Below, piece by piece: positions 6,786 to 11,781 of a stretch of DNA of 64,000 bases. The notes below the pieces were generated by a model. The model worked only from the letters and a program-made list of their open reading frames with translations. It ran no database searches and was not told the DNA's origin. Each line of letters starts with the position of its first letter. Within the stretch, counting starts at the first letter, position 1. Source of the stretch: Escherichia coli (GTDB lineage: Bacteria > Pseudomonadota > Gammaproteobacteria > Enterobacterales > Enterobacteriaceae); assembly GCF_002854065.1 (NCBI RefSeq), contig NZ_CP024147.1; one strand, written 5' to 3'. Made by a program: the position numbers and the translations under genes.

Positions 6786-7193
6786 GTGATTATAATGGGG
6801 CTTTTTGATGAAGTTGTCGGCGCCTTTCTGAAAGGCGATGCGGGGAAATATCAGGCTATTTTAAGTTGGGTTGAGGAGCAGGGCGGTATTCAGGTGCTGC
6901 TGGAAAAACTGCAAAGTGGCGGCTTAGGGGCCATTCTCTCAACCTGGTTGAGTAATCAACAGAGCAATCAATCAGTTAGCGGCGAGCAACTGGAATCGGC
7001 GCTCGGCACAAATGCGGTGTCCGATCTCGGGCAAAAACTTGGCGTGGATACCAGTACAGCTTCCAGTTTACTGGCAGAACAATTGCCGAAGATTATTGAT
7101 GCACTCTCACCGCAAGGTGAAGTGCCACCACAAGCCAATAACGATCTGCTTTCCGCAGGCATGGAACTGCTGAAAGGGAAACTCTTCCGCTAA
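6786..7193 (+). CDS. yidB: DUF937-type conserved protein YidB
   Basis: 135 aa ORF in the position between gyrB and yidA. Confidence 0.75.
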   Translation: MIIMGLFDEVVGAFLKGDAGKYQAILSWVEEQGGIQVLLEKLQSGGLGAILSTWLSNQQSNQSVSGEQLESALGTNAVSDLGQKLGVDTSTASSLLAEQLPKIIDALSPQGEVPPQANNDLLSAGMELLKGKLFR

Positions 7194-7307
7194 GCAAATG
7201 GGGAGCATGCAACCCGCGTTGCATCCCCCTTTTCCCTCGGGTGTTGTACTGATTTTTGAGCGGAATCGCGTTAGCATGGGTCAGGAACCAATCTACCTGG
7301 GGAACTC

Positions 7308-8120
7308 ATGGCTATCAAACTCATTGCTATCGATATGGATGGCACCCTTCTGCTGCCCGATCACACCATTTCACCTGCCGTTAAAAATGCGATTGCCGCA
7401 GCTCGCGCCCGTGGCGTGAATGTCGTGCTAACGACGGGTCGCCCTTATGCAGGTGTTCACAATTACCTGAAAGAGCTGCATATGGAACAACCGGGTGACT
7501 ACTGCATTACTTATAACGGCGCGCTGGTACAGAAGGCCGCTGATGGTAGCACCGTGGCGCAAACTGCTCTCAGCTATGACGACTATCGTTTCCTGGAAAA
7601 ACTCTCTCGCGAAGTCGGTTCTCATTTCCACGCACTGGACCGCACCACGCTGTACACCGCCAACCGTGATATCAGCTACTACACGGTGCATGAATCCTTT
7701 GTTGCCACTATTCCGCTGGTGTTCTGCGAAGCGGAGAAAATGGACCCCTATACCCAGTTCCTGAAAGTGATGATGATTGATGAACCCGCCATCCTCGACC
7801 AGGCTATCGCGCGTATTCCGCAGGAAGTGAAAGAGAAATATACCGTGCTGAAAAGTGCGCCGTACTTCCTCGAAATTCTCGATAAACGCGTTAACAAGGG
7901 TACGGGTGTGAAATCACTGGCCGACGTGTTAGGTATTAAACCGGAAGAAATCATGGCGATTGGCGATCAGGAAAACGACATCGCAATGATTGAATATGCA
8001 GGCGTCGGTGTGGCGATGGATAACGCTATTCCTTCGGTGAAGGAAGTGGCGAACTTTGTCACCAAATCCAACCTTGAAGATGGCGTGGCGTTTGCCATTG
8101 AAAAGTATGTGCTGAATTAA
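7308..8120 (+). CDS. yidA: HAD-superfamily sugar phosphatase YidA (Cof-type)
   Basis: 270 aa; IDMDGTLL HAD motif I near the N-terminus and GDQENDIAM motif near the C-terminus. Confidence 0.85.
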   Translation: MAIKLIAIDMDGTLLLPDHTISPAVKNAIAAARARGVNVVLTTGRPYAGVHNYLKELHMEQPGDYCITYNGALVQKAADGSTVAQTALSYDDYRFLEKLSREVGSHFHALDRTTLYTANRDISYYTVHESFVATIPLVFCEAEKMDPYTQFLKVMMIDEPAILDQAIARIPQEVKEKYTVLKSAPYFLEILDKRVNKGTGVKSLADVLGIKPEEIMAIGDQENDIAMIEYAGVGVAMDNAIPSVKEVANFVTKSNLEDGVAFAIEKYVLN

Positions 8121-8126
8121 TCTATG

Positions 8127-8158
8127 GGCGGGCAAACAGCATAAACGCGTTTGCCCGC
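8127..8158. terminator. Bidirectional terminator hairpin between convergent yidA and yidX
   Basis: gcgggcaaac...gtttgcccgc perfect stem between two convergent genes. Confidence 0.5.
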
Positions 8159-8165
8159 TTACTGA

Positions 8166-8822
8166 TTATTGGTTTACTGCATATACAACCAGAAATTGCA
8201 GCGGTGCAGTAATGATGTCCAGCGTAACAGTCACTGGCAGTAATGCTGCGGAAACACCATCCGGAATGCCTCTGGGTGAATAGTATTCATAAAATCGCAC
8301 TTTAAATGGATGGTAGAACGCCATCACCTTTGAGTAATCCATGTTTTTATTTTTCTCATGGATTGTGCCTTTTAGGTTTTCCAGTGACCTGGTACAGTGT
8401 TGAACACCACAGGCAAAACCATAATGCGTTGCCAGTGCCTTTTCTTCTTCGTTATTCCAGTAGTAGTAAAGCGATATTGTGCCGGTAAATTTCTTTTTCC
8501 CCGCATTTAAAACAAATCTTGCGTCATCGGCAACCTGAATATTGTGCCGGTTAAGTGCTGGATCATTGAGCATCTTAACGATGTCATCGGCACCATCAGT
8601 GATAAGGTAATCCAGCGATTCCCCTACAAAAACATAGCCTTTTGTTCCATTACTATCTTTTGCCTGCGATAGCCCAGTGATGGTGTCTGACTGCGATTGA
8701 TACTTTCCTGAACTACCCTTTGCGGTATGGGAAACCAGAGCATACGAGATACAGCCTGAAAGCATCAGCGCCAGTGGGAATAAACTGGCAGCCTTAAAAA
8801 ATCCCTTAAAATTCAACTTCAT
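8166..8822 (-). CDS. yidX: Putative lipoprotein YidX
   Basis: 218 aa from [24 protein letters not shown] (lipobox LSGC); ORF open further upstream but this Met fits a signal peptide. Confidence 0.7.
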
Positions 8823-9031
8823 GATTAATCCTTTAAACGAGTAGCTAAGCCGTTGAAAGCATACTCTTCTTTCCCTCCTGTTTAGCGCCTGATCTCCCTT
8901 TTCAGATTTCTGCCCGATATAAGACCTTTTCTTATGAGGTGTTTTTTTGTGGACTAATATCTGTTGCAAGGCTATGGGTTCGCCCCGGCACTGGTTTATA
9001 TCTCCGCCGTCGCGTTGATTGGCGCGCTCTC

Positions 9032-10132
9032 TTACATCCTGCTGGTGGGCGATGTGAAGCGCGTTGGATAATCTTTCAACTGTGGAATATGCGCCACACC
9101 ACTGCGCATAATCCACTTTCTTAAAGCCGGTGCGGTCAGGCATCGGCTTTTTACTATCTTGCCGAAGAGTTTTAAACGCAGTTTGCGGGTGGCGCGCCAG
9201 TAAGCGGCGTTGCTCTTCTCCGGCTGTTTCAGGAACACCGCACGCAGAATCTCTGCGCTATCCAGCGCATAGCTTATCCCCTCCAGCGAGCTGGCGCTGA
9301 TAAATCCCGCCGCTTCACCAATCAGAAAGGCGTTGTCCTTACCGCAGATAAAATCCTGCCAGCGTGAGGGAAACAGCACTGTGCATTTTTCGCTTTTCAC
9401 CGCTTTGCCAAACTGGAACTGAAAGGCGCTCATTTTCTCTTTCAGCGTCGCGAAACGCGTCTGTCCGTCTTTCATTGGATAGGCACCACCAAAGATAAAA
9501 TAACCGTCTTTGCTGATACTCCATGAATAACAGTCAGTTATCGCATTATCAAAGATGCAGGAGTAGAACGGCACCGGATGTTTCTCTGCGAACCACTGCT
9601 GGATTGCGACATATTTACGGATTTGATGATCCGGGTAGAGATGTCGCCGCACCATCGAGTTGGCACCATCGGCACCGACCAGATAGCGGGCGGTAATATG
9701 CTGCTCCCAGCCGTCTGCACGAAAAATGACATGCCATTTATCATCCTCACGCCAGATTTTTCGACACAGGCTGTCGTGATAAACCTCAACGCTGGCGGGG
9801 ATCAGCGATTTCATCCACAAGTCGAAAGCATGGCGATTAATATTGATATAGCTTCGCTGGTAGTTACGCGTGAGCGATGCGGCGACGTCGACAGTTTTGA
9901 CGCTGAAAATCTGTGGATTGGCGATCACATCGACAGGAAGCGTCAGTCCATCGCGAATAAAAGATCGCTGCGCGTCCGGTGCCAGCAGACCGCCGCAGGG
10001 TTTGCTGAAACCTTCAGTACCACACTGGTGCTTTTTATCCAGCGCGATCACCTGCATTTTGCCTGCTAACTTTCGCGCCAACGCCGACCCTGCCGGGCCG
10101 AGGCCAATAATCGCCACGTCGAAATGTTCCAT
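9032..10132 (-). CDS. cbrA: FAD-dependent oxidoreductase CbrA (YidS)
   Basis: [22 protein letters not shown]ossmann GxGxxG; position next to yidR. Confidence 0.75.
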
Positions 10133-10196
10133 CTTTTCACTCACATTCATCACGATGGCGAAAGACTATTGTCTGAAAGTGAAGTCCTTGTGAAGT

Positions 10197-11447
10197 ATGA
10201 TGGCGGGACCCGTTTTGTATCAGGACCGCGCCATGAAACAGATAACCTGTGCTCCCCGTAATCATCTGCTGACCAATACCAATACCTGGACGCCCGACAG
10301 CCAGTGGCTGGTATTTGACGTGCGTCCTTCTGGCGCGTCGTTTACCGGCGAGACCATTGAGCGTGTGAATATCCATACCGGTGAGGTCGAGGTTATCTAT
10401 CGCGCGTCACAGGGCGCACACGTCGGCGTGGTGACCGTTCATCCGAAGTCAGATAAATATGTCTTTATTCACGGCCCTGAAAATCCTGATGAAACATGGC
10501 ATTACGATTTCCATCATCGACGCGGAGTCATTGCTGAAGGCGGCAAGGTGAGCAATCTCGATGCAATGGATATTACCGCGCCGTACACCCCAGGAGCGCT
10601 GCGCGGCGGCAGCCATGTGCATGTCTTTAGCCCGAACGGTGAAAGGGTGAGCTTTACCTATAACGACCATGTAATGCATCAACTCGATCCGGCGCTGGAT
10701 TTGCGAAACGTCGGCGTGGCTGCACCGTTTGGCCCGGTCAACGTACAAAAGCAGCATCCGCGTGAATACAGCGGTAGCCACTGGTGCGTGCTGGTGAGTA
10801 AAACCACGCCCACGCCGCAGCCTGGCAGTGATGAAATCAATCGTGCTTATGAAGAAGGATGGGTAGGAAATCACGCGCTGGCGTTTATTGGCGACACACT
10901 TTCGCCAAAGGGCGAGAAAGTGCCGGAGCTGTTTATCGTTGAGTTACCGCAAGATGAAGCTGGCTGGAAAGCAGCAGGTGATGCGCCGTTAAGTGGAACG
11001 GAAACAACCCTGCCCGCGCCACCGCGTGGCGTCGTGCAGCGACGTTTAACCTTTACCCACCATCGGGCTTATCCGGGGTTAGTCAACGTCCCGCGCCACT
11101 GGGTGCGCTGTAATCCGCAGGGTACGCAAATCGCGTTTTTAATGCGTGATGATAACGGCATTGTGCAACTGTGGCTTATCTCGCCACAGGGCGGCGAGCC
11201 GCGCCAGTTAACCCATAACAAAACGGATATTCAGTCTGCATTTAACTGGCATCCATCAGGAGAATGGTTGGGCTTTGTGCTGGATAATCGAATTGCTTGT
11301 GCCCATGCGGAAAGCGGGGAGGTTGAGTATTTAACCGAAAACCACGCCAATCCACCTTCTGCGGACGCCGTGGTCTTCTCGCCGGATGGTCAGTGGCTGG
11401 CGTGGATGGAAGGCGGCCAGCTGTGGATCACCGAAACTGATCGCTAA
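10197..11447 (+). CDS. yidR: Beta-propeller (TolB/WD40-like) protein YidR
   Basis: about 416 aa ORF, synteny with cbrA and yidQ. Confidence 0.7.
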   Translation: MMAGPVLYQDRAMKQITCAPRNHLLTNTNTWTPDSQWLVFDVRPSGASFTGETIERVNIHTGEVEVIYRASQGAHVGVVTVHPKSDKYVFIHGPENPDETWHYDFHHRRGVIAEGGKVSNLDAMDITAPYTPGALRGGSHVHVFSPNGERVSFTYNDHVMHQLDPALDLRNVGVAAPFGPVNVQKQHPREYSGSHWCVLVSKTTPTPQPGSDEINRAYEEGWVGNHALAFIGDTLSPKGEKVPELFIVELPQDEAGWKAAGDAPLSGTETTLPAPPRGVVQRRLTFTHHRAYPGLVNVPRHWVRCNPQGTQIAFLMRDDNGIVQLWLISPQGGEPRQLTHNKTDIQSAFNWHPSGEWLGFVLDNRIACAHAESGEVEYLTENHANPPSADAVVFSPDGQWLAWMEGGQLWITETDR

Positions 11448-11448
11448 A

Positions 11449-11781
11449 TCAGTTATCAGGCATTCTGGCCGGTGGAATAACCGCATTGGTGGCTTGCGCG
11501 TTGGCTTCGCTTTTTTCAACGCGCGAGCGCACCGAGCTGTCTTTGCGGAACACATCCCACGGCAGTAAAAGCGTGTCCATCACAGCGGTAAACGGCATAT
11601 CGAGAATCGCCAGCGACTTAGTGCCCCAGTTGGTTTCATCGTCGCCAATCATGGTGGCGCTGGCGCGGGTGCCGGGATACGTTCCTTCTTTCCCCCCGGT
11701 ATGGGACATCACGCTGGAGCATCCTCCGAGTAATGTCATTCCGCTGCATATCATGAACGCTAACAACACATTTCTTATCAT
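11449..11781 (-). CDS. yidQ: Small lipoprotein YidQ
   Basis: 110 aa from MIRNVLLAFMICSGMTLLGGC (lipobox); adjacent to ibpA. Confidence 0.65.
   Translation of the reverse strand: MIRNVLLAFMICSGMTLLGGCSSVMSHTGGKEGTYPGTRASATMIGDDETNWGTKSLAILDMPFTAVMDTLLLPWDVFRKDSSVRSRVEKSEANAQATNAVIPPARMPDN

Follow-up and report, generated by a model that had tools for sequence, protein, structure and literature searches.

A widespread deletion of the D-galactonate operon in Escherichia coli and the diverged patch across its junction

What has become of the D-galactonate operon on an Escherichia coli chromosome where the two genes that flank it in K-12 stand almost side by side? The DNA analysed here, hereafter the window, is a 64,000-nucleotide segment of an E. 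coli chromosome, which starts about 530 bp upstream of dnaA and is, up to about 37.7 kb, oriented in reverse of K-12. In this segment the spacing between yidX and cbrA is exactly 209 bp (8823-9031), the yidX frame ending at an ATG at 8822-8820 and the cbrA stop codon occupying 9032-9034, both on the minus strand, and the annotation of K-12 MG1655 gives the order cbrA, dgoT, dgoD, dgoA, dgoK, dgoR, yidX. The original prediction had placed the K-12 dgo operon at this position and had put the gap, and the distance from the end of the cbrA ORF to yidX, at about 210 bp, all of which agrees with annotation and ORF coordinates. It had furthermore proposed either loss or ancestral absence of the operon, as a trait of this lineage in keeping with other metabolic gene losses in the window.

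Extent and consequences of the deletion

When the interval is aligned with K-12, as had been proposed as a check, two abutting blocks are obtained, the first with window 7000-8957 running up to K-12 position 3,875,302 and the second with window 8958-11500 running from 3,870,551. K-12 3,870,552-3,875,301, a segment of 4,750 bp, is unmatched and the operon is missing from the window. The lost segment comprises the 141 bp directly upstream of dgoR, the whole of dgoR, dgoK, dgoA and dgoD, and the 5' 1,179 bp of dgoT. Compared to K-12 dgoRKADT with its GntR/FadR-family repressor DgoR, the chromosomal locus and the flanking genes are thus the same, and the last 37 dgoT codons and 135 bp of yidX-dgoR spacer are kept, whereas four of the five genes are gone, dgoT is truncated and the operator/promoter region is deleted. 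The features of the interval are:

8166..8822, minus strand: yidX, gene for a 218-aa lipoprotein, K-12-type allele (ORF list; RefSeq annotation of CUWW06, a near-identical genome; 99.8% identical to K-12 yidX)
8823..8957, no strand: what is left of the yidX-dgoR spacer, 135 bp (alignment to K-12 3,875,302-3,875,437)
8957..8958, no strand: deletion junction (abutting BLAST blocks; the 4,750 bp of K-12 3,870,552-3,875,301 are missing between these bases)
8918..8987, no strand: diverged patch across the junction, 70 bp, putative foreign arms of the deletion allele (21 substitutions and 1 indel relative to K-12)
8958..9071, plus strand: 3' remnant of dgoT, 37 codons and stop, pseudogene fragment (translation; tblastn 36/37 to K-12 DgoT residues 394-430)
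9032..10132, minus strand: cbrA, 366-aa allele, its last 40 bp overlapping the dgoT remnant (CUWW06 annotation; the exact protein is recorded as E. coli CbrA)

In K-12 the deleted segment starts with ATTGTAGTACAACAATATAAGTTTGTACTACA, which is absent from the window, and its 141-bp stretch carries the paired inverted repeats ATTGTAGTACAAC...TTTGTACTACA. The DgoR operators have been described as inverted repeats overlapping the dgo promoter (PMC12288454), and both operators and promoter, which in K-12 begin directly to the right of the retained spacer, are gone. The 114-bp dgoT remnant translates in frame and is tagged as a partial pseudogene by RefSeq in CUWW06, in O157:H7 EC4115 and in O145:H28 genomes. 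Direct reading of 8823-9031 combined with a repeat scan revealed, at the junction, neither an IS sequence nor an IS end nor a duplicated target site, the BLAST blocks leave no microhomology at 8957/8958 (0 bases of slide), and the nearest IS1 is found at 39337-40105. A promoter and terminator scan of 8600-9300 gave nothing above shuffle expectation. On the plus strand at 9123-9150, inside cbrA and about 55 nt past the dgoT stop, a GC-rich hairpin runs into a stretch of T (AAAGCCGGTGC...GCATCGGCTTTTT), and this is likely the dgo operon terminator, located within the convergent cbrA and kept despite the loss of the operon.

Both flanking genes show variation of their own. The window cbrA encodes 366 aa as compared to 354 aa in K-12, because a single base at 9068 (A vs C) removes the K-12 TAG stop by converting it to TAT, and the 12 extra codons overlap the dgoT tail. 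The long cbrA allele is also found in O145:H28 and in dgo-positive B2 strains (e.g. APEC O1), and its presence in the latter means that it is unrelated to the dgo deletion. As for yidX, two E. coli alleles exist that are only about 70% identical as DNA, a K-12 type in K-12, the window and O157:H7 and a B2 type in APEC O1, SCU-484, CFSAN061768, HS-02 and O145:H28, and Escherichia sp. E1V33 has yet another form, 91.6% identical; the adjacent yidA shows 96-99% identity across all carriers of these alleles. In the deletion allele no stop interrupts the yidX frame upstream until past the junction, and the resulting 325-aa ORF (window 8166-9143, minus strand), named 'putative replicase' in EDL933 (AAG58893.1, YidX cluster), seems to be an artefact of annotation caused by the scar.

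The remaining truncated dgoT tail favours a deletion, and not ancestral absence, as the origin of the yidX-cbrA gap. That dgo was never present here in this lineage and was instead inserted in that of K-12 might be thought compatible with the plasticity of the locus, since yidX and cbrA are Escherichia-specific neighbours of dgo that Salmonella and Klebsiella are devoid of, but this explanation is next to impossible and indeed already refuted by the remnant, whose 37 in-frame codons specify residues 36/37 identical to K-12 DgoT. It is likewise at odds with the finding that dgoRKADT adjoins yidA at the syntenic position in Salmonella and Klebsiella oxytoca, and with the presence of the full operon in 5,010 of 5,426 E. 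coli genomes. Of the two options in the original prediction loss is therefore upheld, and ancestral absence is not.

The operon could also have been relocated elsewhere in the genome or to a plasmid, with catabolism kept. A few dgo matches are located on plasmids, and the difference between the 413 genomes carrying the junction (see below) and the 404 of 5,426 complete E. coli genomes in which nothing matches the 4,750-bp segment implies that nine carriers apparently match the dgo segment elsewhere. Judging from the sequence searches such a relocation is nonetheless very unlikely. By tblastn with the five K-12 Dgo proteins, no intact dgoR, dgoK, dgoA, dgoD or dgoT and no DgoD, DgoA, DgoK or DgoR homologue was found in the 64-kb window, the only matches being the dgoT remnant and a weak MFS paralogy to UhpC and UhpT. 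The chromosome of strain 100416, the closest complete genome, was queried with a chimera of a lineage marker (window 37700-39340) and K-12 dgoD, and was matched in one place only, by the marker half and not by dgoD; this search for homologues elsewhere, too, had been suggested as a check, and for the window and the 100416 chromosome it bears out the loss. Furthermore, at least 404 of the 413 carriers are devoid of any dgo DNA. In addition, yidX is found directly downstream of cbrA in 24/24 of the contigs read that encode the exact CbrA of the window.

With no regulator, transporter, kinase, aldolase or dehydratase left, the strain is predicted to be incapable of taking up or catabolising D-galactonate, and we infer that loss of the whole pathway at once avoids the problem of toxic intermediates associated with partial loss. 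Some isolates without structural dgo genes have been reported, and D-galactonate is a gut sugar acid, the use of which is under selection during colonisation of the mouse gut (PMC12288454). Among the phylogroups, E has been found to do worst on D-galactonic acid lactone by a wide margin, with a growth yield of 0.40 as compared to 0.82-1.01 in the others (PMC3147056).

Distribution of the allele and other lesions in the window

A 131-bp junction probe, covering 8890-9020 and centred on the junction, was compared with 5,426 complete E. coli genomes and matched 413 of these (about 8%), in all cases at full length, once per genome and on the chromosome. An assembly artefact is ruled out by the occurrence of the same junction in 413 independent complete assemblies, and chance does not come into question for a difference in structure as it would for a statistical pattern. 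The carriers are mostly O157:H7 and O145:H28, whose genomes are 98.5-100% identical to the probe, and the others stem from chickens, pigs, baboons, deer, water and humans. O157:H7 (EC4115, EDL933-type) and O145:H28 have the junction base, the 114-bp dgoT remnant and the diverged patch in common with the window, their flanks being 1-4% different from it; O157:H7 differs in having K-12-type bases at 8984 and 8987, and hence a shorter foreign arm, as well as a 354-aa cbrA, and O145:H28 differs in having the B2-type yidX allele. With a junction of 3,875,302 to 3,870,551, the 114-bp remnant and the diverged patch all in place, the window deletion is the O157:H7-type allele, which the O157:H7 reference genomes themselves carry. 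The dgo loss is a known, ordinary and widespread polymorphism that is not specific to this lineage, and the notion that it would be a feature of the lineage is contradicted by the identical junction that 413 E. coli genomes share with Escherichia sp. E1V33.

The original prediction had moreover taken the loss to fit with other metabolic gene loss in the window, and the corresponding explanation would be a lineage-specific reductive evolution in which dgo fell to an IS1-driven decay resembling that of Shigella and EIEC. The window does contain two IS1 copies, a truncated tnaA and a truncated porin gene, and is missing adeD-adeQ and bgl genes, and a loss of catabolic pathways together with IS1-associated lesions elsewhere in the window is what such decay has in common with it. 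The junction itself is however devoid of IS, target duplication or repeat, which differs from Shigella/EIEC-type decay, and the same allele is found in non-invasive E. coli and in another Escherichia species. An identical junction in 413 genomes from many serotypes and hosts, and in that other species, means that the deletion predates the lineage, and the 1-6% divergence of the flanks along with two yidX allele types excludes that the 413 carriers are one recent clone. CUWW06, in addition, has an IS-associated content unlike that of the window and yet the same dgo locus. Reductive evolution is therefore an exceedingly improbable cause of the deletion, in which the IS1 lesions elsewhere had no part, and the supposed fit with other metabolic loss fails, the allele being older. 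A loss of the galactonate genes that does involve a mobile element is found at the same locus in the O141:H4 strain P13-6, where an IS91-family element occupies the site, the deletion takes in cbrA and reaches yidK, and 197 bp of dgo promoter sequence are left; this is a separate, IS-associated event, in contrast to the window allele, which has no mobile element.

The IS1 copies are found at 39337-40105 and 51178-51945. The first lies between a LamB-family porin gene (38264-39217, minus strand) and tnaA and joins the two, both being truncated at the 5' end; the tnaA ORF (40165-41475) has K-12 homology from 46 nt into the gene and is followed by tnaB, and tryptophanase is probably inactive, to judge from this truncation. 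CUWW06 is entirely without the tnaA'-tnaB segment. The identification of the 38264-39217 porin as bglH was rejected, as the gene has no DNA similarity to K-12 bglH and adjoins yicN in many E. coli. A Shigella identity of the window was considered as well, but its exact CbrA and YidX proteins are both on record as E. coli. Relative to K-12 the dnaA-to-uhpT part (1-39336) is reversed and the tnaA-to-glmU part (40106-64000) is forward, the two being joined at the IS1, and this arrangement implies a putative IS1-bounded inversion of about 50 kb which flips dnaA-dnaN-recF-gyrB relative to the atp/oriC side and has its other end outside the window. If inverted, dnaA-dnaN-recF-gyrB would meet the replication fork head-on.

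Several further differences from K-12 are found in the window. Both adeD and adeQ, in K-12 located between uhpT and yicN, are missing at 37723-37793, and the window yicN is only 79% identical to that of K-12 and is followed by the porin gene that K-12 is devoid of; this yicN-porin arrangement is common to other carriers of the dgo deletion. The 48766-56451 region replaces K-12 cbrB, cbrC, yieK, yieL and bglHBFG (3,897,434-3,906,865), and includes an IS1, a small ORF with pentapeptide repeats (52583-53053) and two large ORFs (48908-51022 and 53522-56035), which RefSeq calls 'type III effectors' and which match neither Pfam nor NCBIfam. Between ilvN and uhpA the window has an insertion of 3.4 kb as compared to K-12 (29268-32665), the ORFs of which likewise match no Pfam or NCBIfam family, one of them being annotated as frameshifted in CUWW06. 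The glv locus (15900-18850, with extra sequence at 18122-18612) is on the other hand more intact than in K-12, CUWW06 being annotated with an intact 6-phospho-alpha-glucosidase, for which K-12 has the glvG pseudogene, and with a single fused PTS IIB/IIC gene, and this runs contrary to a general metabolic loss.

The diverged patch across the junction

The 70 bp of 8918-8987 hold 22 of the 106 differences from K-12 found in 3.4 kb, where 1.8 would be expected (Poisson P = 4e-17). The patch diverges by about 30% from every dgo-positive E. coli, and the seven dgo-positive haplotypes of K-12, A19, 06_3288, CFSAN061768, HS-02, APEC O1 and SCU-484 agree mutually and differ from it. None of the 5,007 dgo-positive genomes turned out to carry the patch when the E. 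coli collection as a whole was queried with a K-12/patch chimera, the best full-length identity to the chimera being 96.2%, which corresponds to all patch mismatches. It does not obviously appear to have been described so far.

On the dgoT side, 7/9 of the substitutions are synonymous and in third codon positions (P = 0.008), which is what a gene diverging while still at work leaves behind, in contrast to decay. In the 35 bases concerned, the window has 9 differences from K-12, 8 from Salmonella and 10 from K. oxytoca, whereas the next 79 bp are E. coli-like, with 2 mismatches to K-12 as compared to 14 and 12 to Salmonella and K. oxytoca, respectively. The synonymous bias and the Salmonella/Klebsiella-level distance together place the junction inside short arms of a dgo locus about as distant from E. 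coli as that of another genus. The left arm of the patch still aligns to the Escherichia-type yidX-dgoR spacer.

The obvious alternative is that an ordinary K-12-like dgo operon was deleted in situ in an ancestor and that the scar subsequently gathered neutral mutations. This would be in agreement with the ordinary E. coli sequence outside 8918-8987 and with the freedom of a dead remnant to gather changes, and two of the changes do look unconstrained: the left arm alters the TGTGATCTAA motif, which is conserved in the aligned Enterobacteriaceae (E. coli, Salmonella, Klebsiella and locus L018), and the dgoT remnant carries an Ala-to-Leu codon change, GCG to TTG, the Leu variant of which (YLLQGYGF) was found in 0 of about 130 DgoT homologue proteins checked. 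Because TGTGATCTAA is altered and the Ala-to-Leu change is seen in no examined DgoT homologue, part of the patch divergence may indeed represent decay after the deletion and not donor sequence. As an account of the whole patch, deletion in situ is however unlikely, since the divergence is limited to 70 bp with sharp edges and the equally dead 8988-9031 has zero differences from K-12, since the synonymous third-position changes on the dgoT side are the signature of a functional gene, and since the patch is invariant among carriers whose flanks are 1-6% apart. The left arm furthermore contains, at 8921-8937, a perfect small hairpin, ATAAGA-CCTTT-TCTTAT, where K-12 has another one, GCAT...ATGC; the changes seem to compensate one another, a hint that a structure upstream of the dgo promoter may be conserved.

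A donor was sought with several approaches. An exact 24-mer of the patch had E1V33, itself a carrier of the deletion, as its sole match in the GTDB species representatives, and a search for relatives of E1V33 by way of its exact YidX protein gave only E1V33 on record. Scans of JGI metagenomes for an intact locus, i.e. a Gly codon followed by the right patch or the left patch followed by a non-T base, gave zero matches, and the homologue DNA of loci L017 (DgoT 92-93% identical), L018 (89%), L028 (Salmonella) and L029 (K. oxytoca) is no nearer to the patch than is K-12. A foreign origin of the arms is what these 70 bp suggest, with no donor among the genomes searched.

The junction and patch are the same in nine other aligned carriers, eight E. 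coli and E1V33, the latter being the one other species found with the identical junction. E1V33 is identical to the window over 8888-9016 although the divergence of the region is 6.1% (P of zero differences = 4e-4), and the tract in common is thus an identical one set within flanks diverged at species level. Within E. coli the same junction is found beside both yidX allele types. The right arm ends at 8975 in strain 06-00048, at 8978 in O157:H7 and at 8987 in the window, O145:H28 and E1V33, which makes the window a carrier of the longest version seen. A junction in two yidX contexts and arms of varying ends are expected if the allele moved by homologous recombination, and taken together these sequence comparisons suggest that a deletion allele with short foreign arms was spread by recombination.

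Proposed history and meaning of the allele

According to the history that we consider most likely, a single old deletion would have removed the operators, the promoter, dgoR, dgoK, dgoA, dgoD and the first 1,179 bp of dgoT, and this deletion would have formed in a diverged relative, or on DNA derived from one. The deletion allele would then have entered E. coli via homologous recombination, and later recombination with ordinary E. coli alleles would have trimmed the foreign flanks until the arms of about 40 and 30 bp that cannot be separated from the junction remained. We are rather confident in the overall explanation, namely that the window carries one old 4,750-bp deletion, identical by descent among its carriers, which did not arise in this lineage, probably has foreign arms and would have been spread by recombination. 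The more specific reading is put forward tentatively, as a possibility of somewhat less than even standing: the allele may be a horizontally propagated dgo-null, a scar originating in an unsampled Escherichia-like relative diverged at genus level, which crossed species (E. coli and E1V33) and spread by homologous recombination, leaving about 40 and 30 bp of donor DNA with the trimming still ongoing.

By itself the dgo deletion represents no new biology, as the same lesion is found in the O157:H7 references and fits the published weak growth of phylogroup E, and caution should be taken not to count it as part of the strain's own IS-driven decay. The junction patch that is common to the window and E1V33 does however constitute a small and tractable case of deletion alleles moving by recombination. 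If the horizontal reading is true, the allele would be a clean natural example of a gene loss that was gained by horizontal transfer, and it might possibly also reflect niches, for instance that of EHEC, in which the loss of galactonate catabolism is selected for.
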